Shown: in pieces, positions 2,429 through 64,000 of the stretch
Layout of the letters: every line of letters begins with the position of its first letter
Numbering within the stretch: position 1 is the first letter of the stretch
Source: Ruminococcus flavefaciens
GTDB taxonomy: Bacteria; Bacillota; Clostridia; Oscillospirales; Ruminococcaceae
DNA length: 64,000 nucleotides
Direction of reading: 5' to 3'
NCBI GenBank assembly: GCA_902762855.1
Contig: CACWPR010000001.1
Location: 7,656-71,655 of the forward strand
Program-made: the position numbers and the translations under genes
The notes under the pieces: model-generated
The model's input: the letters and a program-made list of their open reading frames with translations, nothing else
Databases searched by the model: none
Told to the model about the DNA's origin: nothing

Positions 2429-3550
2429 TTATATTTTTCCGTCTTTTCCGATATAAAGCGGATAAGTCTCAGAACCGGTGAGCACCTTTTCGTCACTTAT
2501 CTCAACGTTCTTGTCAGTTATCACAGAGGTAATGCTGCAATTTCTGCCTATTTTTGTACCCTGGAGAAGAACAGCGTCCTTGACTACTGTACCCTTGCCG
2601 ATCTTTACGCCTCTGAAGAGGATGCAGTTCTCAACAGTACCCTCGATAACGCAGCCGTCAGCGATAAGGGAGTTCTTGATATTTGATTCAAGGCCGTACT
2701 TAACAGGGCCGTTATCGCCTATTTTGGTGTATACGGGCATATTCTTTCTGAACAGAGCGTTGCGCTTGTCAGTGTCGAGGAGCATCTTATTAGCAAGGTA
2801 GTAGTTCTGAACGCTGTCTATCCTTGTGAAGAACTCCTTGTGCTCGTAGCCCATGATATTGTACTCGTCCTTCTTGCCCTGGAGTATTTCTCTGGTGAAG
2901 CTGGACTGGTTCCTGCTGGCGGCGTCAAAGACGATCTTCTTGAGAAAGTCCTTGCTGATGATGAACATTTCGAGCCAGATGTTGCAGGCGCCTGACATCT
3001 GGGGGTCAACGAGGACGTCCTTCAGTCGGTTATCCTCACTGAATTCGAGTATAGTCGAGCAGCTATTCTTCTCGCTGTCGTGGAATCCCTTGCTGTAGAT
3101 AAGTGTGATGTCAGCGCCGGTCTCCATATGCTGCTTGAGGACTGGGTTGAAGTCGATGGTAGTGATGACGTCACAGTTGGACATTATCACATACTTTGCA
3201 TTGGAGTGCTCAACGAAGCTCCAGATGTTATTGAGGGCATCCAGTCTGCCCTTGTAGATACCGCCGGTCTGGCTGTACGGAGGAAGCAGATGGAGTCCGC
3301 CCTTTTTACGGGAGAGGTCCCAGTCACGGCCGGAGCCGAGGTGGTCCAGCAGTGAGCCGTAGTTTGACTTAGTGATAACACCTACCTCTGAAACGCTGGA
3401 ATTTACCATGTTTGAGAGGGGAAAATCTATAAGGCGGTAGCGTCCGCCGAAGGGGATAGAGCCCATAGTTCTCTGCTTGGTGAGCTCACTTACGTAGGAA
3501 TCGTGCATACTTGCGAAAATAAGGCCTAAAACATTGTAATTAACACTCAT
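2429..3550 (-). CDS. glgD: Glucose-1-phosphate adenylyltransferase subunit GlgD
   Basis: [20 protein letters not shown]; degenerate GlgC paralogue next to glgC. Confidence 0.92.
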   Translation of the reverse strand: MSVNYNVLGLIFASMHDSYVSELTKQRTMGSIPFGGRYRLIDFPLSNMVNSSVSEVGVITKSNYGSLLDHLGSGRDWDLSRKKGGLHLLPPYSQTGGIYKGRLDALNNIWSFVEHSNAKYVIMSNCDVITTIDFNPVLKQHMETGADITLIYSKGFHDSEKNSCSTILEFSEDNRLKDVLVDPQMSGACNIWLEMFIISKDFLKKIVFDAASRNQSSFTREILQGKKDEYNIMGYEHKEFFTRIDSVQNYYLANKMLLDTDKRNALFRKNMPVYTKIGDNGPVKYGLESNIKNSLIADGCVIEGTVENCILFRGVKIGKGTVVKDAVLLQGTKIGRNCSITSVITDKNVEISDEKVLTGSETYPLYIGKDGKI

Positions 3551-3566
3551 ACTAAAACTCCTCCTG

Positions 3567-4793
3567 TCAGATATTTTCGCCGATTATCTGCTTGGGTTCA
3601 ACGACCTTGTTTTCAGAAACGGTAACATTGTGGCCTACAACGGCGATGCCCCAGTCGTCACGGTTCTCGACGTTTTCAGGGCTTGTGCCGACTCTTGCGC
3701 CGCTTTCGATGACGCTGTCGCTGCCTACGATAGCATACTCAACAACAGCACCGGACTTGATAACAGTACCGGGCATAACTATGCTGTAGTTGACAGTAGC
3801 GCCCTCCTCGATAGTGACACCGGAGAAGAGAATGGAGAAATCGACAGTACCGTCTATCTCGCTGCCCTCGGATATCATGGAGTTTTCGATATTGGCGTTA
3901 TCGCCTACATACTGCGGAGGCATATTGCTGTTTCGTGAATATATCTTCCAGCTTGGGTCATAGAGGTCCAGGGGAACGCTGGGTGAGAGGAGGTCCATAT
4001 TAGCCTCCCAGAGGGAATCGAGAGTTCCGACGTCCTTCCAGTAGCCTTCAAACTCGTAAGCGAACAGGCGCTGCTTGTCACGCAGCATGGAAGTGATGAT
4101 ATCCTTGCCGAAGTCCTTGGACCAGGCCTCACCACGGTCACGCTTGGCATTGGCATCCTCTTCGTTCTCGATGAGGTACTTTTTCAGCTTGTTCCAGCTA
4201 AATACATAGATACCCATAGAAGCCAGAGTAGACTTAGGCTCCTTTGGTTTTTCAACGAAGTCGATGACCTGATTCTGGTCATCGCATATCATGATACCGA
4301 AGCGTGAAGCCTCGGACTTTGGAACGTCGATAACAGAGATAGTGCAGTCAGCGTTGTTGGCTATATGGAATTCCACCATTTTGGAGTAGTCCATTTTGTA
4401 GATGTGGTCGCCGCCGAGGACAACTACATACTCAGGGTCATAGCGCTCGATAAAGCGCATATTCTGATATATAGCGTTTGCAGTACCCTCGTACCATGAA
4501 GCGCCTGCCTGAGTCTCATATGGCGGCAGAACATGGACACCGCCGTTCATTTTATCGAGGTCCCATGGCTGACCGTTACCGATGTACTCATTGAGTACAA
4601 GGGGCTGGTACTGAGTAAGTACACCAACGGTGTCGATACCTGAGTTTGTGCAGTTTGAGAGAGGGAAGTCTATTAGTCTGTATTTACCGCCGTAGGGTAC
4701 AGCAGGTTTAGCAACGTTCTTAGTCAGAGCATAGAGTCTGCTGCCCTGTCCGCCGGCGAGGAGCATTGCCACCACTCTTTTCTTTGTATACAT
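3567..4793 (-). CDS. glgC: Glucose-1-phosphate adenylyltransferase
   Basis: [38 protein letters not shown]. Confidence 0.96.
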
Positions 4794-4825
4794 ATTATTC
4801 CTCCTATATAAATGATATATTGATA

Positions 4826-6799
4826 TTATTCAGCTTTGGCAGAGCGCCTTGACTTTGCCGGAGCTTTTTCTTTCTTTTCAGGAGCGTCGGTTTTGGGAGC
4901 TCTCTTTTTTACGGGAGAGTACTTCAGATAGATGACTGACAGCGGAGCCAGAGTCATGGAAATGCTGTCATCGAAGCCATGCATAGGGATGCTGTCGGAC
5001 TTGAAGGACTTCTCGGTTATAGCAGAGCCTCCGAATTCAGCGGCGTCTGTGTTGAATACCAGCTTATAGCGGCCCTTGTGGGGGACACCGATGCGGTAGT
5101 CACGTCTTTCCACAGGGACGAAGTTGCACACAGCGATAAGCTCGTCGCCGTTGTCGTCTATCCTCCGGAAGGCGATGATGCTCTGCTTGTAGTCATCGTT
5201 GGATATCCAGCTAAAGCCGTCCCAGGAGTCGTCATCCTGCCAGAATGGCGGGTTGTCGAGGTAGAAGCGGTTGAGCTTTTCTGAGAATTTCAGAAGGTTC
5301 CTGTGAGCATCGAAGTCCATGAGGTTCCAGTCGAGCTGAGACTTGTAGTCCCACTCCTTCATCTGGCCGAACTCCTGGCCCATGAACAGCAGCTTTTTGC
5401 CGGGATGAGCCATCATGTAAGCGAGGAAAGCACGGTAAGAAGCGAATTTCTGGTCGTACTCACCTGGCATTTTATTTATCATTGAGCACTTTCCGTGAAC
5501 TACCTCGTCATGAGAGATAGGGAGGATGTAGTTCTCGGAGAAAGCGTAGAAGAACGAGAATGTGAGCTTATCGTGGTTGAAAGCACGATAGATAGGGTCA
5601 AGTGACATATAGCTGAGCATATCGTTCATCCAGCCCATGTTCCACTTGAAGTTGAAGCCAAGTCCGCCGATGTCGGTGGGTCTGGTGACAAGCGGCCATG
5701 CGGTGGATTCTTCGGCAATCATGAGAGCGTCTGGGTGCTTGGAGAATACGGCCTCATTGAGGTGTTTAAGGAACTCAACAGCCTCCAGGTTCTCATTGCC
5801 GCCGTAGATATTAGCAGCCCATTCGCCGTCACGGCGGTCGTAGTCAAGATAGAGCATAGATGCGACGGCATCAACTCTCAGACCATCAACGTGGAACTCA
5901 TCGAACCAGTAATTTGCACTGGAAATGAGGAAAGAGCATACCTCGGCCTTGCCGTAGTCAAAGACTCTTGTGCCCCAGGCCTTATGTTCCTTTTTGCGGT
6001 CATCTGTGTACTCATAGCAGCAGGTGCCGTCAAATTCGTACAGGCCGGCCTCGTCCTTTGGGAAATGGGCAGGTACCCAGTCCAGGATGACACCAATGCC
6101 GGCCTCATGGAACATATCTATCATCTTCCGCATATCGTCGGGTGTACCGTAGCGGGAAGTAGGGGCGAAGTAGCCTGTTACCTGGTATCCCCATGAGCCG
6201 TCATAAGGGTACTCAGTGAGAGGCATGAACTCCACATGGGTATATGACATTTTTTTAAGATAGGGTATCATTTCCTTTGCGAAAGTGACATAATCAAGGA
6301 AAACGTCATCGCCGTAATTCTTCCAGGAGCTCAGGTGGACCTCATAGATGTTCACCGGGCTCTTGTAGATGCTGTTCTTCTTTTTCTCCTCATACCACTG
6401 ACTGTCTGACCACTCGAAGCTGCTCTCGAAGATTTTGGAGGCAGTACCCGGACGGGTCTCGAAGTGGTGGGCATAGGGGTCAGATTTGAGGATTATCCTT
6501 CCATCCTTAGTCTCAATGCTGAATTTGTAAGCGTCGAATTGTTTCAGCTTGGAGATAGTTGTCTCCCATATGCCGTCAGCGATGAGGGACATAGGGTCTG
6601 CATCCCTGTTCCAATCGTTGAAATCGCCTACGACTGAGACGCTTACAGCATTAGGAGCCCAAACTCTGAAAGTAAAACAGCGGCCTCTGCCTTTTTTCTT
6701 TGAGTGAACTCCGAAGAACTTATAGGCCTCATAATTTTTTCCCTGATAGAAAAGGTACAGCGGGAAATCATTTGGATTTGATTTTGTGTTAACTGTCAT
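4826..6799 (-). CDS. glgB: 1,4-alpha-glucan branching enzyme
   Basis: [44 protein letters not shown]13 motifs. Confidence 0.96.
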
Positions 6800-36077: not shown

Positions 36078-36422
36078 ATGATTGAAAATCGAAAGAGAAA
36101 TATTCAGGTAAAGTTCCGGGTTGATGAAAAAGAGTATGAGTGCATACTGAAAAAAGTTCAGCTATCCGGAAAAAGAAATATGGCGAGCTACTTACGCTAT
36201 ATGGCAATCACCGGAAGGATAATGAACATCGAGCTTGAAGATCTCAAAATCACATCAGCAAATGTCGGAAGAATAACTTCCAGTCTGAATCAGATCGCAA
36301 AGCGAATTAATGCAACAGGAAACATCTACGATGAGGATATAGCAGATATGAAGGATAAGGTTGATAAGGTATGGCAAGAACTGAAATCCATCCGATTAGC
36401 TCTACGCTCAATATCGCAATAG
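36078..36422 (+). CDS. mobC: Relaxosome accessory protein MobC
   Basis: KFRVDEKEY, SYLRYMA, SSLNQIAKRIN motifs; overlaps relaxase start; ATG 36078 after AAGGA. Confidence 0.88.
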   Translation: MIENRKRNIQVKFRVDEKEYECILKKVQLSGKRNMASYLRYMAITGRIMNIELEDLKITSANVGRITSSLNQIAKRINATGNIYDEDIADMKDKVDKVWQELKSIRLALRSISQ

Positions 36423-37708
36423 ATTATATAATTGATCCTGAGAAAACTGACGATCAGAGATTATGTTCCACTTATGAGTGTACACTGCAATGTGCAGCAA
36501 TGGACTTTGAAGATATTCGTTATCAAGGAACAGGTCGGACAACGGTGCTTGCACAGCATATGATCCAGTCGTTCAAACCCGGTGAAGTTACTCCGGAAGA
36601 AGCTCATAAAATTGGCAGAGAATTATGCGACAAATATCTTAAAGGACAGTATCAATATGTGATAGCAACTCACATTGATAAGGAGCATATACACAATCAT
36701 ATAATTTTCAATAACATTAATCTTGAAAACTTTAAATCGTTTGAGTATCTCGAAAATCGTGGAAAGGATTCTGCGGAACGTCTGCGGCAGATCAGCGATG
36801 AAATATGTGAAGAACACAACCTCAGTGTGATACAAAATCCAGAGCGAGGAACAAGTAAATCTTACTACGAATGGCAGCAAGATAAACTCGGAAACTCTTG
36901 GAAGTCTAAGCTGAGAAATGCAATTGATAAAGCTGTAAAAGGCTCTTCAAACTTTGAGGACTTCCTTACAAAAATGCAGGAGCAAGGATATGAGTACAAG
37001 CAAGGAAAATATCTCTCGTTCAGAGCTGTTGGTCAAGAAAGGTTTACTCGCTGCAAACGCAGTACACTTGGTTGGTACTATGAGCAGCCTCAGATTGAAA
37101 AGCGTATCGCACGATATAGTTCACTTGTAGGACAGAAGTCATATCGTACCAATATTATTGATACGAACTCTGAAAAGATCAAGGGTTCAAAAGGTTTGGA
37201 GCGTTGGGCAGCTATCAGGAATATGCAAGAGGTATCGAGAATGATAAATCTCCTGACAGAAAAAGGAGTATCCTCCCCTGATGAGATCGATGATAAGCTG
37301 ATGCAGCTCCACGAAGATAGGCTCAGACTTGCTGATAGATTGAATGATATTCAGGACAATATCAATAGCATATCAGGAGTGGTGAAACTGCTTGAAACTT
37401 ACAGGGAGTTAAAGCCTATGTATTCTGAATACAAAGAAGTAAGAGCTAAAGAAAAATTCCGAAAGGAACATAGTGCTGAGATAACTATATATGAAAGTGC
37501 AGTCCGGCAGCTCAAAGACTTGTTCCCGGATAATAAAATTCCACAGCTTGAAACAGAACGTAATAAGATGAAGTCGCTTATTTCGGAGAGAGATCAGCTT
37601 AACGAACGATATAAAGGATTGAAGTCAGAAATAGAGGAAATGGAAATTGCAAAGAAATCCATTGACGAATACCTTGACACTCAGGACCGGTCCGGACTTG
37701 ATTTATGA
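36371..37708 (+). CDS. Relaxase (MOBP-type relaxase/mobilisation nuclease)
   Basis: N-terminal IDYI, HMIQSFKPGEVTPEEAH, HUH motif HIDKEHIHNHIIFN. Confidence 0.93.
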   Translation: MARTEIHPISSTLNIAIDYIIDPEKTDDQRLCSTYECTLQCAAMDFEDIRYQGTGRTTVLAQHMIQSFKPGEVTPEEAHKIGRELCDKYLKGQYQYVIATHIDKEHIHNHIIFNNINLENFKSFEYLENRGKDSAERLRQISDEICEEHNLSVIQNPERGTSKSYYEWQQDKLGNSWKSKLRNAIDKAVKGSSNFEDFLTKMQEQGYEYKQGKYLSFRAVGQERFTRCKRSTLGWYYEQPQIEKRIARYSSLVGQKSYRTNIIDTNSEKIKGSKGLERWAAIRNMQEVSRMINLLTEKGVSSPDEIDDKLMQLHEDRLRLADRLNDIQDNINSISGVVKLLETYRELKPMYSEYKEVRAKEKFRKEHSAEITIYESAVRQLKDLFPDNKIPQLETERNKMKSLISERDQLNERYKGLKSEIEEMEIAKKSIDEYLDTQDRSGLDL

Positions 37709-52616: not shown

Positions 52617-55600
52617 TTATAACTCTTCTTTCTCCTGAGAGCTATCTGGGATGCTGCTCTTAGCCTTTTCAGCATAATCACGCTGTATACTGCGAGAAAA
52701 CAATGGCTTTTCCTGAACATTCTCCGCTGTTTGTTTGTCACTTTCTTTAGCATCTTTATCAGTAACTTTCTCCGGAGGTTGTAATTCGATCTCGATCTGA
52801 GCCAACCGTTCCATTTTATCGTGCAGTTCCGCTGCTTGTGGGAACGGCTTGTTCATTTCGATCTCGCCCTCAGCGATCAAAGTCTTTAGTTCCGCTTCTC
52901 TTGCGATGAGGTTATCCAAGCTTTGCGGAAGTCCTGATATAGCATTCTCTATTCTTGTAATATTACCGCCCGGAGAAGTACCAAGATTGATACGATAAGG
53001 CTGATTCTCACGTTTCAGCTCTGCTACATACTGCTGCTGCCACGAATTGAAGGATATACTTACCTTGAAGCCCTTGTATTCAGCCAAAGTCTCCATTTTC
53101 TCAGCATTAGGAGTACATTTGTCTCTCATTGCATAAAGTAAAGCTTCACCGGCTTTCTCACGCTCAGAATAGGTCACACCGCCGATCTTTATATCCAGTA
53201 TCTTCTTTCCGTCCTCATTGAGCCTATCCGGAACGCCTTCAAGGTATTTGATGTCCTCCTTTATATACCCGATACGCTTAGTTGTAGCTTCAAGCTCAAC
53301 AGGATACTTCTTCAGAACATTGTCTTGCAGCTGATAATGCTGATTGTCATAGCTCGACTTTATCATTTTTAGCTCTGCGATCTCATTTTCAAGTGTCATT
53401 TTCTCCTTGATAAGCGGATTTCCGGCACATAGAGCCTTTACCTCTGAGTAAGAAAGTGCATTTGCATCCACATCGGCACAGTTTCTTGCCGGAGACTTTG
53501 AAGTCATAATCTGACCGATAAACTTCTGCTTGTTCTCCAAAGTCTGGAACAAATATGAATCGAAAGTTTTCTCAGTAACATAGCGGAAAAGATGAACTTC
53601 CTTGTTCTCATTGCCTTGTCTTACCATTCTTCCACGTCGCTGCTCCATATCTGCCGGACGCCAAGGTGCATCCAGATCGTGAGAAGCTACAAGCTTTGTC
53701 TGTACGTTTGTACCGCATCCCATTTTCGCAGTCGATCCTATAAGAACCCTTATGTCACCACGGCGAACTTTTGCGAACATTTCAGCTTTCGCAGTTTCGT
53801 TCTTTGCTTCGTGAATAAATGCTATTTCTTCTCTCGGAACTCCCTTTGCAACGAGCTTTTCACGAATATCGTCATAGATCGAGATTTTTCCGACTTCCTC
53901 GATAGCATCATCATTGACCTTTTCTTCGTCCTCCGCATCTTTCTTTACAGGATCACCTTTGATATTAGGAACACCCATATCGCAGAATATAAGCTGTGTC
54001 GAACGATCTTCCTTTGTTTCATTCCAGATATTGAATACATTCTCGACACAAAGATTGACTTTTGTTCCCGGTTCATCAGGCAGAAGGGGATTTATAAGTC
54101 TCTGATCCAGTCCGCATTTGCGTCCGTCATTGGTAACACAGAGCATATTGTCCACGCTGCTGTCAACGCTGCCACTCTGAATCTTGTCTGCACGTTCAGC
54201 AAGTGAAGCTACTATATCAGTCTGAATTTTGGTAGGCTTTGCAACAATTGTCTGTGTTTCACACTCCGGTACATCGAGGTTGAGCTGATCGGAAGTCTTA
54301 ATATCTGCAACTTCCTTGAATAACGACATAAGCTCCGGTATATTATTGAACTTCGCAAAACGTGTTTTCATTCGGTAATCGTTACCGGCAGGACGTACCT
54401 CATAAGCTGATACAGTTTCACCGAAGTTTGCTGCCCAACAATCGAAGTGCTTCAAGCCAAGCTCTTCAAGGCGGTCACTCTGGAGATACTTTTGCATAGT
54501 ATATATCTCCGTCATTGAGTTTGCAACAGGTGTGCCGGTTGCAAAAGTAGTACCACGATTACCGGTTATCTCATCGAGGTAACGGCATTTAGCGTATAGA
54601 TCCGGAGTTTTCTTAGTGTTCTGATTCGTAGAAATGCCCGAAACATTGGTCATTTTCGTAGTCAGGAACAAATTTTTGAACTCGTGAGCCTCGTCAACGA
54701 ACATCTTGTCAATGCCGAGCTGCTCAAACGTAACGACATCGTCCTGATTTTCATTTTGAAGCTTTTCAAGCTTAGTTTCAAGGTTCTTTACAGCCTTTTC
54801 CATTTGCTTAACGGTAAACTTAGCTCCGTCCTGATCTTGCATTTCCTCAATACCGTTTCGGAGATCGTCTATCTGTTCCTGAATAGTTTTCTGCTGCCTT
54901 TCTATGGATACCGGTATCTTTGTTATCTGAGAATGACCGATAATAACAGCATCAAAATTGCCGGTAGCTATCTTAGCACACAGCTTCTGGCGATTTTCCT
55001 TAGTAAAATCGTTCTTTGTTGCGACCAGAATATTCGCATTAGGATAGAGCCTTAAAAAGTCCTGTCCCATCTGCTCTGTCAGGTGATTCGGAACTACCAT
55101 AAGCGACTTATGATGAAGTCCAAGACGTTTTCCTTCCATAGCAGTCGCTATCATTTCAAAGGTCTTGCCAGCACCTACTTCGTGAGCAAACAGCGTATTA
55201 CCGCCGTATAGAGCGTGTGCAATAGCATTCTTCTGATGATCTTTAAGAGTGATTTCCGGATTCATACCTGGGAAGGAAAGGTGCGAACCGTCATATTCAC
55301 GAGGTTTTGTGCTGTTGAAAAGAACATTATATCGCTCAACTAAGAACTCTCTGCGTTCCGGATCTTTAAATACCCATTCCTTGAAAGCTTCTTTTATAGC
55401 TCTCTGCTTCTGCCTTGCAGCAGCAGTTGCCTTATCATCGAGGACGTTCTTCTCTTTTCCCTCATCAGTCTCTATTTTCTTTGTGACCTTTGTATCTCTG
55501 AGGTTAAGTGCATCCTCAAGGAGCTGATAACCATTACGCTTTTCTGTTCCATATGTAGTAGTTACTGTAACATTATACTTATCAGCCGACTTGTTTGTAA

Positions 55601-58600
55601 TGCTCCAAGTTGCTGTCGCACCGCTGTATTTGACCTCTATCGAAGCTCCACGCCACTTGTGTTCATATGGCTGCAACGTTCTCGGAGTTTTGAATGTCTC
55701 GACCATAAACTGCTGAATATAGTCTATCGGAATCCAAGTAGCACCAAGCCGTATATCTATATCACCGGCAGTAAGCTTTTCCGGCATAGCAGCTTTCAGA
55801 GCTTCAACATTCGATGAATAAATAATATCATTCTCGGCAGCAGCCTCCGCAGCAGCAAGCTTGTTCCTGATGTTGCCGGAAAGGTACTCGTCAGCCATTT
55901 CATATTTCGGATTACCCTCGCTGTCGATCCTCTCAGGATTAGGATAGATAACACGGTGAAGGTCAGAAATCAGCTTGTTACGGTCAAATCCGGTAAGGCT
56001 CTGCATATAGTCCAAGTCAACTGTTGCTCTTTCAGAAATGGAGATAGCAAGAGCTTCCTGAGATGTAGAAACGTGAGTTATCTCAACTTTAGGTCTTACT
56101 GTTCTCTTTGAGAATATATCAGCTTTTCCGACTACCTGTCCATTCTCCACCTTTTCAAGAGATTGAAGCAGCGGTGACGATATATCGTCCTTGAAAGCCT
56201 TTATATTTGCCTTATCGTTGAGATTACCGAACTTCGCAACGAACTTATCATACTTAGCTGTGAGCTTATCCTGTGCAGCCTGAACCTGAACATCTGAGCC
56301 ACCATTGAGCTGAATATCCAGTACATCACGAACGGCAGCGTTTATCTCAGTCATACCGTAGATACGCTTATAGCTACCGGAATTCTTAACCGGGAGAAGA
56401 TTTTCGTTGTTACGATAATAAAGCTGATTATCCTTGATAACATAGCTGAAATTCTTTTCATCTTCTGCCGGGAGGACTGTGAGCTTTTCGGGAGCTGAAA
56501 CTGTTATGTCAGATTTTTCAGCTCTTTCGACAGGCTTTATCTCGCAGCTGATGTTCTGTAATGCTTTCCGCAGCTCTGTTCTGAGGTCTTGCCCCTCAAC
56601 CGGTACACACATAGTATCTTTATTGCCGTAGAGCTTGTTGCCCTCAACGATCTTACCGATAATCATTTCCGGATGATCTTCAAAATATTTGTTGATCTGT
56701 AAACCGTCTGCTGTGTGACCGAGCTTTGTCCACTCCGGTTCAGCTCCGATAACCGGTTCTTCACGCTTCTGGAGGAAAAGAATATCAGATGTTACCTCAG
56801 TACCGGCAAGGGACTTGAAAGCATTGTTAGGAAGTCTGACAGCTCCGACAAGCTCTGCACGTTCCGCAAGATATTTGCGGACTGTATCACTCTGCTTATC
56901 GAGCGTACCCTTTGATGTTACAAAAGCAACGACACCGCCGGGACGAACCTTATCGAGCGTTTTAGCGAAGAAGTAGTCGTGTATCTTGAAATGGTGCTTA
57001 TCATAGCGTGAATCAGCTACCATAATATCACCGAAAGGTACATTTCCGACAGCTATATCGAACTTATTATCGCTGAATAAGGTCTTTTCATAGCCTTTGA
57101 CCTTAATATCCGCACTCTGATAGAGCTGCTTTGAGATTCTACCGGAAATGCTGTCAAGCTCAACACCTGTGAGCTGAGAATTGTTTCGCATATCCTCCGG
57201 CATAAGTCCGAAGAAGTTACCGACACCCATAGCCGGTTCAAGAACGTTACCGCCCTTGAATCCCATATTTCCGAGAGCTGCATACATTTCCTCGATGATT
57301 ACCGGAGAAGTATAGAAAGATGTAGTAGTTGAAGCTCTTGCAGCGTTATACTCGTCATTGTTGAGCAGCAGCCTGAGATCGCTGTATTCTTTCCTCCACG
57401 AATCATTTGTGGCATCGAAAGCCTGAGAAAGACCGCCCCAACCTACATACTTAGCGAGGATAGCCTGTTCTTCAGGTGTAGCTATCCTGTTTTCTTCCTC
57501 AATAGTTTTGAGCGTTCTTATAGCAGCCACATTGTTGCGGAACTTCTCCTTTGCACCGCCACTCTGAATATCACTGGTAATACGGAAATCAAGTTTTTCA
57601 GGCTTTTCTGCTTCATTTGTTTCAATAGTAACAGCATTTGCCACCGGTTCAGCTGTAACAGCATCTTCCATAGCTTCAAACAGCGATAACTGACTGAATT
57701 CCGGCTGCTCAACTTCATTTCCGGCTTTCTCAATGAGAGTATAATCGAGCTTTTCTTTCCAATGACCTATATGTGACATACAGGACATAATGTCATTCTT
57801 ATCGGTATTTGTGAGGTATATAGCGAAATCTCCGTCTATTTTATCGACTTTCCATTGCTTGCCCTCAGTTTCGATAATATCACCGACAGAAAGCTCCTGA
57901 ATTGTTGGTGCAGCCTTTTCTACCGACTGGATTTCCTCATATCTATCGGAAATCATATTTTCACTAATGCCAATATCGCCTTTGTATTCTGGTTTGGCAG
58001 TCGGAACAGGCTGCTCATTACTCCATTTTGTCATTCGTTCAGATTCAGGAACACTATTCTTAACTTCGTATTCATAAATGGACTTTACTTTATCACGATA
58101 TTCATTATTTCCTTTATCCTCAGCGGAAATCTGAATCTCTGAGCGTTCCTTGAAGAACTCAGGTAGTTCCTTGAAACCGAAGGAGTCCACATAATATGCT
58201 GTTTCCTTGCCTTTCTGATTCAGAACGATAACATCGCTGACGGAAAGTGAGTGTCCCCGGAAGTCAGTCGGATGATCTACATTGAATTTCTGATAGATAC
58301 CGTCAAGTTTATGCTGCTTGAACTCAATATCATCGAGATTACCGGAATAAACCTCATCATAGTCGGATATTACCGGGTTTATCTGGTGTTCATCGAGCCA
58401 GTCAGAACCTTCAAATTCAAACTGACGGTTGTATTCATTGTCTTTCAGCTGATATATCTTGTATGTTTCCTCTGGTGCAGCAGCTATTTCAATACCCTTT
58501 GAGCTTATATAGTCGGAAACAGCTCTTTCATCGCCGTTTACAGCTGTAATGCTGCCATTCTGATACTCGATTGAAATATCGTGAACATCGCCCTCAAAGG

Positions 58601-61600
58601 AGTGTTCTGCAATAGCTCTTGTAAGCGTGTGATCCTGTCTTTCAAGGTTTTTGAGCCAAGTATTCATAAAGCTATTGATCTCACGCTGCTGTAAAGGCTT
58701 ATCCTCACAAACCTGATATACACCCATATCAGACTGCTCATATGATACCGCAGCTGCGGTCTGGTTTTCGTGATCTATACGCAGCACTATATCCGGATCG
58801 TACATCAGATCACCGTTAGAAATGTAGGTGTGCATAACTGAGAGCTTATCTTTATCTATCCATTCAAGGGATAACGGTTCGTATGTATCGCTTTCACGCT
58901 TCTCATAGTTGTGCTCTTTGTTCATTATATCCGGGAACTGCTTTACAAGAGCTGTATAATTCCTGTGTTCGATAGTGTTCGGGAACTTTTTCGGCTGTGC
59001 AGCTCTTTCGGCTATATCTTTTGATACAAATTCTCTTGCCTCATCAAGTGTTTCACAGAATTTGCCGTTTCCGCTGTAAGCAAAGTCTTTACCGTCAGTA
59101 CTTGTAAGAATCTGAACATTATACTTATACTGTTCATCGCTATTCTCTCTGATGAGATACTTTGTGTTGCTGTCAGCTCCGGCAATCTCTTCCCGGAAAG
59201 GCTCTTTGTAAAGCTCCTGAGTATCAATGAAGTGAAAACTCATAAGCAGCTCTTTATTATCCAGTCGGGAAGTATAGGTATTATTCTCGAATGTCCAGTT
59301 TGAAGCCTTGTCCCACTCCATATGAATATCTTTACCGGAAAGCTGTCCGTTCTCATCGAGCTTCTGCGATGTGAAACCTACTGTATTCACAGAAGTAACT
59401 ACTCTGCGTTCGCCTACGCATTCTGTACGATGATGTTCATCTATCTCAAATGTCATTCCGGGTTTTATCGCTGCTTTGAGCTGAGAGAGATTCTTTATAA
59501 CCGGCAGCGTGTCTGCTAATTCTGGAGCAGACAGCTCTTTTTCCTGTGTTGCATTTCCGACATATTCATATAAGCTGCTCATAAGATTGTTATACGATAC
59601 ATTTTCAGTGATCTCAAAAGCTCCGCTCATACGCTTTACAGTATAATCGTCAGTATAGTAAGGTAAAGCTCCGGACAGTGATACTACCTCTGAAATAACA
59701 CCTGTTGCCTTATTCTTGAATTTGTCGCCAATCTCTATCTTATACGGCTCAGAGTATTCTTCTGGAGAGCGTTCAGCCTTTATTTTCTGCCATTCTGTCT
59801 GCTGTTCAGAAGATAAATATGTATTGTTGCTCAAACTGTATTCTGCGGCAGTTGCAGTTTCTTCCCAAGAAAAAGCATATTTTTCTCCATTTTCAAATGA
59901 AAACGTTACTCCTTTGCTGTCAAAACTTACAAGTGAGATATTACCGTCCCCGGTATGACCTCCGGTTCCGTATTCTTTTTTCATAAAATCAGCTAATTCG
60001 TTAGTTGTTGGATGATTTGGCTGACTTCGGCTTTTCTCATAGAATTCCTGAATACGGAGCTTTCCGTTTTCAAAAGCTGTACCTTTTATTACTTCATCTA
60101 CCAATGCTGCATATACCTGAACGCCGTCTACAATCGGACCTTTAGCGAAACCGCTTTCAGGACTGCTTGTTTCACCGGATTCAGGTTCAGATATATCATC
60201 AAGCACCAATGCAGGCTGTTCCGCAGCCTTTTCTTCCTCTATTCTTACGTCATACTTCATATATGCTATCGAAGCAAAGGCTTTTTCCGTCTGTTCCTCA
60301 TTATTGAGAATACCGTTCAGAGCTTGCTTGATACGGTTTGTTTTGATCTGATCGTTCTCCCAATCGTGCATAACAGCACCGTCAAAGGCAGCTATCAGCT
60401 CTTTTGCTGTATCTTCTGAAAGCTCCGGCAGCTCATCGTGAAGATCCTGTACTGTTCTTCCGAATACAATATCATTGTATTCTCCCTCAATGAGCGACAG
60501 ATAACCTTCGCCCATAGCTTCATAAGTCACTTCACGTTCAGCATTGCCGTATTTTGCTGTAAACGATTCCTCACCGTATTCGATAATAAATTCGTCCCAG
60601 TTGGAGTTTCTGAATGTTTTCTGGTTGCCGAGCATAGCCAGAGCGAGGTCTTTGCGTATATCCTCACCGCTATTCATACGGCGAGAGAGGTCAAATAATG
60701 CAGTTTCGGGAAGATTATTGCCAAATTTGATTTTTTCACCGGGGTTGTGCTTATCAGTATAGCCTTTTTCAAAGAGAACATATCCCATATCCTCGATTTC
60801 GTCCCACGCAAGATCTGCTTTTGCCATAAACTTAACTATATCTCCGGTAAGGAAGGACATTTCCTTATCAGTATATTCAGGTTCAACTTCTTCCTGTGCT
60901 ATTTCATCGACACGCTGAAATCTATCGATGACTTCACGCAGCTCGTCATCGGCAGCATTATCCTTGTTATTGAAATCTTCATCAGGTTTGAAGAACTCTC
61001 TCGCATCATAGTCAAAGCTATCATTTGTGCTATTAATACCGTAACTAAAACAGTTTGATAAGATATATTCTCTGAAATTCTCGCTGTTAAGAGCCTTTTC
61101 AAGCTGTTTTTCGTACACATTATAGTATTCAAGCTGCTGCTTTTCCTGAGAATAACGAGTAAGTGTTACGCTTTTATCTTCATAATTGACATAGTATTTT
61201 TCCATATCCTGACCTGAAAGTCTTTTCGCAAGTCCCTCACGCTCGATAGCTTTGTATGTGAAGTTGTTTTCAAGTTTATTGAGCAGTTCCAGAGCTTGCT
61301 TAGAATCGGATAAAACATTGTCGTTTCCTTCTCTTTCAGCATCATTTCTCGCTGCTTCAAAGTAATTACGGAGATTGAGAGTATATCCGCTGCGGAGATC
61401 ATCGAGAGCATTGATGTATGCGTTCTGACCGGTATTGAAGTCAATCCAGTCAAATTCCATATACATCTTACTTATGCTATAATCCTCATCAACGTCCAGA
61501 TTTTCGATGATATTACAAATATCGTCATACATCTGCTGAACTTCGATGTCCTTCGGAGCTGCCTTGTACACAGTATTACTGTCGAACCAAGCATATTTAC

Positions 61601-63902
61601 TATCAGAATCAGCTGTATCACGGCTTATGAGCTGATTATCGCTGTCATAAACAGAAAAACCGCTTTCCCATATATCAATAGCCTTGTCCTCATCAATTGA
61701 TGTATCAATTGAAACAGGATAGCTGCTTTTCAGAATAGAATAAGCCTTTTCTACAATGTGATCCTCGTCAAGCTCTTTCAGGAGCAGCTTTTTGACTTCG
61801 GCTTCATTGCGTATAATATCATCATCAACAATGGCATTGCTTGCAAATACCGATACAACCTTGTTTGCATACTCATTGTTTATCCAGAGTGCATCTTGCA
61901 GCTCCGGCACAAGTCTTTCATCAACCCAGAAAAAAGCCTTTTCCTGACTTTCTATTGTTTCTGAATGAACATCGCTACGTTCAGAAGAATCCTGTTCGAT
62001 TGTAGGAGCATCTTCTTCAATTCTTATTCCGGCTTTTTGCAGTTCTTCATCCTCGATAGAAACAAGTTCATCAAAGTTAAGGTTACTAAGAGCGAGCCTT
62101 GTCATTTCAGCGAGGTTCTCATACTGTTCCTCTTTTACAACAACTGAATTGATAGTAGTAATAAGAGCTGCCTTATCGAGATCAGCATTGACCTGAATCT
62201 CATACTCCTGTCCGTATATCTCATCGGTAGTATATGCCAGACCAAAAATGTTTTCAGAGCTTGGTAAATGCGTATCGTCACCATATTCCTTTATGTAAAA
62301 GTCGGATATAGCATTAAGTGCAGCTCTTTTATCTTCGTGCAGCTGGGCGAATTCGACTGCTTCTTTGAAGTTATTATTGATTATAAGGTCAGTAAACTTG
62401 TCGATTTCATCGGCAGAGAAAGTGCTGTCTATCGCTGCAATAGAAGAAACATCAAATCCATTGCTGATAGCTGCGAGAATCCTATCTTGCTGTTCGCTGC
62501 TGAATCCTTTTTCATTCAGGCTGATACTAATATCATACCTTGTTTTCAGATCTTCGATACCCTTTAACGCTGCTGCATACTCAGGAGAGAAGATATCTGT
62601 GATCTTCTTCAACTCAATAGCTTTCGCAGCAAGCTCAGAGAGCTGTTCATTGCTGTACTTTGGTTCAAGGTGAGTATCTATGCTGATATAGTCAAGGGTA
62701 GCTGCTTCTGCTGTATAGTGCCTTAAAGAGGCTATCTGCTCATCAGAAAAACCTTTTTCGGCAAGAGCTGAATCTATGAGATAGATGTTTCGTGCGACAT
62801 TCATATACTTCTCAAAGTTCGCAGTATCCTTTGCCGATACAGTAAATGTCACCATTCCGTCCTTTATCTGACCGGAGTAGTGTATTCCGAGATCATCTAT
62901 TGTTGACTTGATATACTTGTTATACAGTTCCTCAGAAATAATACCGTTATAGAATATCTTATCTTCAATATCCCTATATGCTGTATTTCCGATGATATTC
63001 AGCTGTAAATTATCTCGTTCCTGATCGTTTCCTCCGCTGCCAGACGGTAATTGTTCCTCAGACCTGTCATTTTCATAAGATTCCCGGCTTTCTCCGCTGC
63101 CTTGTACTCTGTGTCTGCTGCCATCATTGCCTGTTCTGCTTTCTGGAGCTGCTCCTGACTCTGTTCTTCCACTTCCTGAAGGTGCTGAAACAATATTCTG
63201 CTGTTCAGCATTTCTTTCAGGACTTCCTGTTGTTCTTCCGCCAGATATTTCAGACGCATCTGTGCGAACCGTCCTATCTCCGGAGAGAGCTGCTGCTTGC
63301 CTGTTATCGTGTTCAGCTCTGCTATCCTGTAACTCTCGTTGATCTTCACTATGCTGTACTTCATTATCCTTTTCACTCCTTTTAGCTATAAGTTCATAGA
63401 ATGTGTGCTTTCTTGCGTGAATGATCTCTTTTTCGATCTCTACAACTCTATTGTAGTTTTTACCGCTTACTGTAATTACAGCTTTTCTCGGACCGTAAAC
63501 ACAGCCTGAGAACTGTATGCCCTCACGTTCAAGCTCCTGTGCTACTCTCAGAGCTACGTCAGCTCCGGAAGTGTGATACTTTTTATCCGGAATATACCTA
63601 TATTCAGCATTTCCGATGATATTCTTATCCGGGGGAGAATATGGTTTAGCAAGCTCAGATGCTTTCAGGACGTTCATCATATCCTCTCCGAGAATAGCTT
63701 CAAGTTTTTCTGTATCTTTTGTGTTTACGCATATTCTCGCTGCTGTCTTACCTTTAGCATTAACGGTAAAAGCGTAATAATTGATACCGGATAATTCAAG
63801 TTTTTCCGCAGCTTCTTGCATAAGAGCTTCTGACATTGTGTAAGCTGTCTTATCCTTATTATCGACTGCTGAAAACCATATTTCATTTCCGACAGTATTC
63901 AA
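52617..63902 (-). CDS. Giant (3761 aa) DarB-like adenine methyltransferase/SF2 helicase with YodL-like and other accessory domains
   Basis: [11 protein letters not shown] and GNVPFG (MTase); [13 protein letters not shown] (helicase); [12 protein letters not shown] (YodL-like); TTG start with AAGGAGG RBS. Confidence 0.85.
62999..63364 (-). CDS. tnpV: TnpV-like protein nested in an alternative frame of the giant gene
   Basis: [20 protein letters not shown]...[12 protein letters not shown] matches the recalled TnpV pattern; AGGAG RBS upstream. Confidence 0.62.
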
Positions 63903-63914
63903 TTCGATTCCTCC

Positions 63915-64000
63915 TTATAGCGACTGCTCGTCCTTTTTTCGTTCAGCTGTCTTTACAGCAGCTCTTTCGCTGTTCTGAGCCTGAGCTTTTGAAGTAAAAG
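63915..64000 (-). CDS. 3' end of the upstream ICE gene (partial)
   Basis: ...FTSKAQAQNSERAAVKTAERKKDEQSL*; its TAA overlaps the RBS of the giant gene. Confidence 0.55.
   Translation of the reverse strand, partial: FTSKAQAQNSERAAVKTAERKKDEQSL

Follow-up and report, generated by a model that had tools for sequence, protein, structure and literature searches.

Contig CACWPR010000001.1 of a Ruminococcus flavefaciens assembly contains, within the 64,000-nucleotide stretch that we analysed (hereafter, the window), a small gene of the TnpV family that lies inside a giant polyvalent gene, that is, one coding for many domains in a single polypeptide, here including a methylase and a helicase. Both genes are on the same strand and they are read in different frames. 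Comparison with related sequences suggests that they form a true same-strand, out-of-frame nested gene pair, maintained by selection in both frames, and we would put the probability of this at about 0.85. The giant gene would be read continuously from a TTG codon at 63902, with approximately 130 codons between two copies of a domain giving a polar disordered tether, and separate ribosomes would most likely initiate at an internal AAAGGAG and ATG to make a folded TnpV. We infer this internal initiation from the conservation of the Shine-Dalgarno (SD) sequence and of the start codon. TnpV and the giant protein may be coupled in function as well.

The nested tnpV gene

The open reading frame (ORF) of tnpV shares 366 nt with the giant gene, and each of its codons begins at position 2 of a giant-gene codon. 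Counted from a GTG codon, the ORF spans 62999..63376 and encodes 125 aa, the likelier start being the ATG at 63364, which gives 121 aa; a stop in the TnpV frame is found 7 codons upstream of this ATG. A Pfam profile search assigns the product to TnpV (PF14198): it scores 56.1 bits (E=4.3e-15), where the curated gathering cut-off is 27, and the match takes in positions 13-111 out of the 111 in the profile. Its size (121 aa) and its location on a relaxase-bearing element are those of a TnpV protein. It is nevertheless a divergent member of the family, with 56 bits versus about 170 bits for canonical TnpV copies. The C-terminal motif WVGRMNNIR...EIV aligns here as MTGLRNNYR...ETI, with W and M replaced; N104 and E112 hardly vary among the aligned sequences. 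At the other end of the protein, the N-terminal MKYSIVKIN is conserved in all copies together with the ATG.

Read in the giant frame, which is open across the entire tnpV ORF, the same DNA encodes a linker of very different character. Its residues 177-301 are 84% S/G/R/E/D/N/Q/T/A and 10% hydrophobic, compared with 57% and 31% in the rest of the giant protein. The SD sequence of tnpV appears in this frame as K174-R175-S176 (AAA AGG AGY), which is nearly invariant amid an unconserved linker; the other conserved linker residues are R280, S281, E282, Q284 and L285. An earlier note, made from the sequence of this DNA, had described a TnpV-like ORF of 121-125 aa with its own AGGAG, on the same strand as a giant methylase/helicase gene and in a different frame, and a linker rich in S/G/R/E, without stops, flanked by two similar domain copies (GIQFSG and GIHYSG). 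We can confirm this description: both ORFs are on the minus strand, Pfam finds TnpV in the small one and methylase, SNF2 and Helicase_C in the large one, the linker is open throughout, and the two domain copies are both present and both fold in an AlphaFold model.

Conservation of both frames in related loci

Two queries, TnpV itself and the N-terminal 420 residues of the giant protein, were used to search for homologues and yielded two loci in metagenome-assembled genomes (MAGs), 23 giant homologues and nine metagenome loci; a search with an alignment of the nested TnpVs added three further MAG loci (L014, L016 and L017). The DNA of the loci, which represent three sub-clades, came from NCBI, ENA, Logan and JGI assemblies. 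The giant homologues are 54-99% identical, and each of the 23 is called as a single ORF of 2073-3877 aa. Overall, some 20 independent assemblies, in which TnpV is as little as 53% identical, have both frames intact. In the nine loci that were aligned in detail, TnpV is intact and 121-122 codons long, the only indel being of a single codon (codon 2), and the giant frame is open over tnpV in every case. The AAAGGAG is kept in all nine, 8-12 nt before the tnpV ATG, and thus across the three sub-clades. Both frames are likewise intact in L014, in L051-L058 and in the distant L017 and L059.

Two of the related loci have lost part of the giant gene. In L016 (Oscillospiraceae MAG JAETSI010000075; 1954-4600), the gene is truncated near 4494 beside a transposase gene, and the overlap has acquired one GAA-to-TAA stop per frame, at 2563 in the giant frame and at 2768 in the TnpV frame. 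This locus, the one exception to the conservation of both frames, has decayed and provides a natural control. In L009 (ENA scaffold WILK20-1..._968; 3001-5400), 674 nt have been lost, with 5 nt in their place, and both frames are intact. The deletion begins at the first base past the tnpV stop codon and removes domain copy 2 together with the sequence that follows it; domain copy 2 would therefore seem to be dispensable, and tnpV is preserved to the last base.

Two other loci show irregularities of a different kind. In a Logan assembly (L010:2922-3020), the head of the giant gene is split into calls of 32 aa and 2930 aa, with the overlap downstream intact; the cause is a frameshift within the head or else a fault of the assembly. 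In an ENA contig of 690 nt with coverage 1 (L050), TnpV matches the clade in its N-terminal half and diverges from it in its C-terminal half, and a stop at 369 ends the giant-like frame; this is probably a poor or chimeric assembly.

A search for the window's TnpV sub-clade in IMG/VR and in plasmids gave no matches, and the sub-clade appears to be confined to Ruminococcus/Oscillospiraceae assemblies. The 21 genomes with weak Pfam TnpV matches that were also searched contained one match, and this one was free-standing.

Selection on each frame

Substitutions in the overlap follow the TnpV frame. Between the window and L003, they number 35, 29 and 58 at TnpV codon positions 1, 2 and 3, and between diverged copies the amino-acid identity of the giant frame in the overlap is 0.31-0.49, equal to that of the third, non-coding frame. 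We compared four close pairs, which together contain 149 substitutions, with the expectation from all possible non-stop mutations. Changes that are synonymous in TnpV amount to 72 of the 149 versus 30.3 expected (p=2e-14), and those that are synonymous in the giant frame to 31 versus 37 expected, which is not significant. Outside the overlap, the distribution is that of the giant frame, with 25/15/60% of the substitutions at its positions 1/2/3 in the 90 codons before the overlap (copy 1) and 25/14/61% in the 100 codons after it (copy 2). The coding periodicity switches frame exactly over the overlap.

The constraint on the giant frame is of another type. An exact calculation over synonymous recodings of TnpV with the codon usage of the giant gene predicts 12-13 stops in the giant frame over tnpV, where there are none, and gives a probability of an open frame, P(open), of 1e-8 to 1e-7 in each of nine sequences; the remaining (third) frame has 14-23 stops. 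We call a TnpV third position at risk if a T there, placed before a codon that starts with AA, AG or GA, would create a giant-frame stop. T is absent from all 38-47 at-risk positions of each TnpV sequence (0 of 43 in the window) and occupies 9-17 of the approximately 77 other third positions (Fisher test per sub-clade, p = 0.004 to 0.0004). In 30 free-standing TnpV genes, the equivalent frame has 1-16 stops and never zero, and among 144 free-standing TnpV genes a single one has it open, over 116 codons only.

Judging from these comparisons, the targets of selection are the amino-acid sequence of TnpV and its start signals, and, in the giant frame, only the absence of stops. Since the giant frame is open against expectation, ribosomes would have to read through the whole overlap; domain copy 1 enters it without a stop, and one continuous giant protein across the overlap would be the simplest reading. 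The excess of synonymous changes in the TnpV frame and the avoidance of stops in the giant frame thus support the dual coding over about 370 nt that the earlier note had suggested, and its proposal that the long frame is real on both flanks agrees with the 60-61% of substitutions that fall at third positions there. The earlier note had also named findings that would speak against it, namely a long frame interrupted in most homologues or an alternative frame with no TnpV match and no conservation; the long frame is uninterrupted in every intact homologue, and the alternative frame has both a Pfam match and the signature of purifying selection.

Predicted structures

AlphaFold2, run on the first 420 residues of the giant protein with a 13-row alignment, predicts three small beta/alpha domains at residues 18-76, 95-165 and 302-382, with a predicted local distance difference test (pLDDT) score of about 69-88. 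For the linker, residues 168-301, pLDDT is below 50, and it drops to 28-29 over residues 210-300. TnpV is modelled as a beta-hairpin followed by five helices, with a pLDDT of 91.8 and a predicted template modelling score (pTM) of 0.80. According to these models, one reading of the overlap DNA is folded (TnpV) and the other is a disordered tether.

Recurrence of the nesting and choice of frame

The earlier note had treated the nesting as a single oddity, and in this it has to be corrected, as the arrangement is recurrent. A survey covered 160 TnpV loci, taken in equal numbers (80 each) from genomes and from IMG/VR. Relative to TnpV, the reading frame lying two bases downstream, which is that of the giant gene in the window, is open in 17 of them, and the one lying one base downstream is never open, with 4-15 stops. 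Almost all of the open frames (16 of 17) belong to ORFs of more than 470 codons, and 13 of these ORFs exceed 1000 codons, start about 290 codons upstream and run off the locus. In 16 of the 160 surveyed loci, and additionally in L017 and L059, TnpV is therefore nested in a long ORF, and the relative frame is the same each time. Pooled over the 16 nested loci, T occupies 0 of 525 at-risk positions, as against 17% in free-standing copies. Most TnpV genes (143-144 of the 160) are free-standing, often beside integrase/recombinase genes (e.g., L049).

The genetic code explains why the relative frame does not vary. Every giant-frame stop can be removed silently, because T-ending codons always have a C-ending synonym. 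The other shifted frame is blocked, because an ATG followed by A makes an unavoidable TGA, and Met is followed by Asn, Lys or Arg at several conserved places in TnpV. As a result of this constraint, the same relative frame would be expected in every nested copy, which is what we found. The rule is a general one: purely synonymous changes can free just one shifted frame of stops.

In a TnpV tree of 176 rows, obtained by a quick search, the window's clade and L017 form one long-branched group with a support of 99, and the other nested copies are in an unresolved basal region beside a large free-standing clade. The label "nested" requires 4 changes on this tree versus 23 when shuffled, and the nested copies may have a single origin.

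The surroundings of the nested gene differ between loci. L059, L200 and L206 have a head that we take to be ArdC-like, for which Pfam finds no family, and then the TnpV-linker; L059 and L206 continue into a conserved YVGWGGL stretch, which in the window's protein is located just upstream of the methylase region. The window differs in that its TnpV-linker separates two copies of the same domain and comes after a head without ArdC-like character. The head of L017 is also, presumably, ArdC-like (again with no Pfam match), unlike that of the window, and its TnpV-linker is followed by a domain that is nearest to the window's copy 1 (alignment score of 99 versus 45 for copy 2). Given that TnpV is upstream of a copy-1-type domain in L017 and downstream of one in the window, the position of the cassette varies. 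The TnpV of L017 scores 43.6 bits against Pfam TnpV. In this locus (L017:1450-5328; Oscillospiraceae MAG JAZQOZ010000142), we also observed an open TnpV frame of 260-288 codons and a low-complexity linker of about 230 residues, approximately twice as many as in the window.

The position of the cassette in L017, the end point of the L009 deletion and the nesting in giant ORFs with different N-termini suggest a broader idea, which we regard as rather doubtful: that the tnpV-linker is a portable module of polyvalent genes, with TnpV as an obligate partner of the giant protein. If this were true, the module would be a cistron running from SD to stop, with a stop-free and disordered shifted frame, capable of supplying a gene and a tether between any two domains. 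TnpV could then be, for example, a chaperone, or an adaptor for the export of the giant protein or for establishment in the recipient, and the nesting would lock its synthesis to the mRNA of the giant gene.

Origin of the nesting

Distant homologues of the giant protein offer a view of the locus without the insert. P0026 and P0027, at 33-38% identity, have the same head, and in them copy 1 is joined straight to copy 2; in P0029, about 20 residues separate the two copies. The 9.8-kb locus of P0026 has no TnpV in any frame. Read from the alignment and the sequence, the extra 130 or so codons consist of the SD sequence, a spacer and the tnpV ORF, which together make a minimal cistron. On this evidence, the tnpV cistron looks like an insertion that was reused as a linker. 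What landed between two domains would have been either a plain tnpV cistron or a tnpV-linker cassette that already existed in another polyvalent gene, and it would have been kept because its shifted frame gives a harmless flexible linker.

As to which reading came first, TnpV would be the older one, because it is folded, constrained and part of a widespread family (present in 144 of 301 genomes of the order), and the linker would have been laid over it. The de novo birth of TnpV inside the linker is unlikely, as TnpV is a folded, constrained frame that is mostly free-standing, although the unrooted TnpV tree would be compatible with it. The earlier note had supposed that a TnpV gene was absorbed as a linker, which fits the direct joining of the copies in P0026 and P0027 and the composition of the additional codons. 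It had also spoken of tnpV as overprinted within the giant gene; the overlap stands, and the order of the words should be turned around, since it is the linker that would be the newer reading laid over tnpV.

Alternative explanations

Several observations weigh against the interpretation that we prefer. A scan of 62500-64000 for promoters and terminators gave chance-level counts and nothing placed to serve tnpV, so the initiation of TnpV would be needed inside an mRNA that is already under translation; in addition, the 11 nt between its SD sequence and ATG make a rather long spacer by usual standards. A Foldseek search of the TnpV model against the PDB found no fold match (best E of about 1). 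The sequences sampled come mostly from metagenome assemblies. With regard to the origin, the event could have been an insertion here or a loss in P0026 and P0027, its direction being our reconstruction, and the TnpV tree is unrooted, with nested copies branching near its base, so that either the nested or the free-standing state may be ancestral.

The absence of a promoter or terminator of its own in the scanned region and the divergence of the window's copy from its family (56 versus about 170 bits) are also what one would expect if the TnpV ORF were an untranslated relic, swallowed by the giant gene and open by chance or by hitch-hiking. We consider this very unlikely, given that the substitution pattern tracks the TnpV frame and not the giant frame, the amino acids of which are no better conserved than those of a non-coding frame. 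A relic would hardly have retained its ATG and AAAGGAG over three sub-clades, an intact ORF at 53% identity with one single-codon indel and a predicted structure with a pLDDT of 92, nor would the deletion in L009 halt exactly at its stop codon. Another reading is that the region holds two or three separate genes, for an N-terminal protein, tnpV and a helicase/methylase, and that the open giant frame is a compositional accident. The NCBI pipeline annotates a related Monoglobus record in this manner, with an "SNF2-related protein" 1.9 kb downstream of TnpV, and two entries from Ruminococcus MAGs stand at NCBI on their own under the name "TnpV protein". However, the Monoglobus record itself has a single ORF of more than 1724 codons across the region, no intact copy has a stop in the giant frame, and both the P(open) of 1e-8 to 1e-7 and the avoidance of T make an accident scarcely credible; in the sole free-standing TnpV with that frame open, only 116 codons are open. 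Domain copy 2 would moreover lack a start codon before residue 350, distant homologues hold copies 1 and 2 in one polypeptide, and stops do arise once an insertion sequence (IS) disrupts the giant gene, as in L016.

It could also be argued that TnpV is produced by a programmed +1 ribosomal frameshift, as a fusion with the head and copy 1. SD-like AGGAG sequences within a coding region, such as the one present here, can stimulate +1 shifts, as is established for prfB, and in some relatives (L006 and L007) the TnpV frame is open for at least 100 codons upstream of the ATG. In the window, however, such a shift would have very little space, since the TnpV frame has a stop 7 codons ahead of the ATG, and inspection of the 24 nt between this stop and the ATG by eye, without a formal search, revealed neither a zero-frame stop nor a slippery heptamer. 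Conservation of the ATG and of the N-terminal MKYSIVKIN extends to all copies, and free-standing TnpVs have the same length, so the frameshift retains a very slim chance. An assembly or sequencing artefact, in the form of a frameshift error or a chimera, might be suspected from the predominance of metagenome assemblies and from the low-coverage contig L050, in which both frames are altered. Its probability is practically negligible, considering that some 20 independent assemblies, produced in different studies with different assemblers and 53-100% identical, share the arrangement, and that the wider class also occurs in closed plasmid-type records of cultured strains. Thus, a nested pair kept by selection in both frames is the interpretation that we retain.

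The giant gene and its element

The coordinates of the nested gene, of the giant gene with its domains and of the relaxase gene are collected in Table 1.

Table 1. Features of the window that bear on the nested gene pair (positions count from the first nucleotide of the window).
Feature	Position	Strand	Basis or remark
Nested tnpV	62999..63364	-	121 codons plus TGA stop; ATG at 63364; Pfam TnpV
Internal Shine-Dalgarno AAAAGGAG of tnpV	63376..63383	-	AGGAG at 63380-63376, 11 nt 5' of ATG
Disordered linker, giant residues ~171-301 (predicted)	63000..63392	-	Same DNA as tnpV; pLDDT <50
Giant polyvalent gene	52617..63902	-	3761 codons, TTG start at 63902; ORF list and translation
Shine-Dalgarno AAGGAGG of giant gene	63910..63916	-	7 nt 5' of TTG; read from sequence
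Head domain, giant residues 18-76, small beta/alpha (predicted)	63675..63851	-	AlphaFold pLDDT 69-82
Domain copy 1, residues ~93-166, GIQFSG...ITVSG	63405..63626	-	AlphaFold pLDDT 77-88
Domain copy 2, residues 302-382, GIHYSG...TFTVSA	62757..62999	-	AlphaFold pLDDT 72-82
DUF6908 domain, giant protein	58629..58961	-	Pfam E=5e-21
YodL domain, giant protein	58155..58463	-	Pfam E=4e-28
Eco57I-type N6-adenine methylase motif region	56844..57188	-	Pfam E=2e-5, score just at cut-off
SNF2-type helicase core (SNF2-rel_dom / ResIII + Helicase_C)	53613..55253	-	Pfam E=2e-9, 1e-6
MobA/VirD2-type relaxase gene	36371-37708		Indicates a conjugative element

The presence of DUF6908, YodL, an Eco57I-type methylase, SNF2 and Helicase_C in one ORF of 3761 aa places the giant gene, by its sequence, in the polyvalent-protein class of a Ruminococcus conjugative element. 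The TAA stop of the preceding gene lies directly upstream of its AAGGAGG. At the N-terminal end, the head domain is conserved as far as the distant homologues P0026, P0027 and P0029, and domain copy 2 begins directly at the tnpV stop codon, with no ATG, GTG or TTG before residue 350. Pfam gave nothing significant for the head, for the domain copies or for the heads of other giant ORFs, and NCBIfam gave no match to TnpV or to the N-terminal 500 aa of the giant protein. A Foldseek search with the N-terminal model returned weak ACT-like matches only (E of 2e-4, TM-score of 0.14 on the query and 0.3 on the target), which we did not use.

The first part of the window (1-35000) is chromosomal, with dockerin-bearing GH43, GH30 and GH16 enzymes, FeoB, SpoIIE and a P-type ATPase, and since the relaxase gene starts at 36371, the left boundary of the element would be near 35-36 kb. 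In relatives, the giant genes have DUF4316 and MuF_C genes as neighbours. The gene located upstream of the giant gene in these relatives (for instance, L002:938-2449) encodes 503-670 aa, with MuF_C in some; by eye, it contains three further repeats that resemble the small domains of the giant protein (GIQFSAV..ITVH).

Annotation and implications

In the RefSeq record of Monoglobus pectinilyticus "plasmid 12" (NZ_OY725736; L220:3175-8346), TnpV is annotated at 4022-4354 and "SNF2-related protein" from 6271, and the table leaves 3175-4021 and 4355-6270 unannotated despite one spanning ORF of more than 1724 codons; this annotation was taken from the PLSDB table, in which pseudogenes are left out, and may therefore deviate from the original record. 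The layout is the same in a record from Subdoligranulum.

If the pair is what we propose, gene inventories of conjugative elements from gut and rumen Bacillota would be wrong at the tnpV/giant locus. In bacteria, few long same-strand overlapping pairs are firmly supported by evolutionary evidence, and such pairs are often contested, which would give this case an interest beyond the element itself. It would also illustrate a route to new linkers, in which a large protein reads through an imported gene in another frame. Moreover, the nesting links the uncharacterised TnpV family to polyvalent proteins and could thereby offer a lead on its function.

Comparison with known systems

Among the papers listed for TnpV, none concerned nesting, as judged by titles and abstracts, and the top-ranked literature on overlapping genes made no mention of TnpV; as far as we could find, the nested TnpV architecture is unpublished. 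Several known systems nevertheless resemble it in part. The closest in layout is comS of Bacillus subtilis, which D'Souza et al. in 1994 and Hamoen et al. in 1995 are said to have described as nested out of frame in srfA-B. In both cases, a huge multidomain gene contains, on its own strand and in a shifted frame, a small complete gene that has a separate ribosome-binding site (RBS) and that is, or in the present case would be, co-transcribed with it. However, comS has 46 codons and is known only from Bacillus, whereas tnpV has 121 and belongs to a widespread, mostly free-standing family, and the host frame encodes a folded enzyme module in srfA-B and, by prediction, a disordered linker here. 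comS has been directly proven by experiment, and the tnpV pair is known from sequence and models.

The Rz/Rz1 spanin genes of phage lambda are an embedded +1-frame pair. As proposed for tnpV, a complete gene is embedded in the +1 frame, both genes are functional, and the arrangement recurs over many mobile elements. The products of Rz and Rz1 work together in a single complex whose function is known, whereas a partnership between TnpV and the polyvalent protein is hypothetical, and the host here is an 11-kb gene with the overlap confined to its linker. The TnpV of Tn4451/Tn4453 belongs to the same PF14198 family, has the same size and is likewise found on mobile elements, but canonical TnpV genes are free-standing, in contrast to the nested, long-branched sub-clade of the window.

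As for the host gene, polyvalent proteins of conjugative elements carry many domains per polypeptide (Iyer et al. 2017, PMC5512222), and that class shares with the window's protein the combination of YodL, methylase and SNF2 helicase within a single polypeptide encoded by a conjugative element. In contrast, no Pfam family is matched by the N-terminal head or the repeated domains found here, and Iyer et al. mention neither TnpV nor a second reading frame. Finally, the pair resembles the overprinting known from viruses (reviewed in PMC8227390), in which two products share DNA, one of them ordered and constrained and the other disordered and fast-evolving. It would differ in two respects: the younger reading appears to be a linker segment of a pre-existing giant protein and not a new small protein, and the older frame looks to have been imported as a complete cistron instead of being resident.

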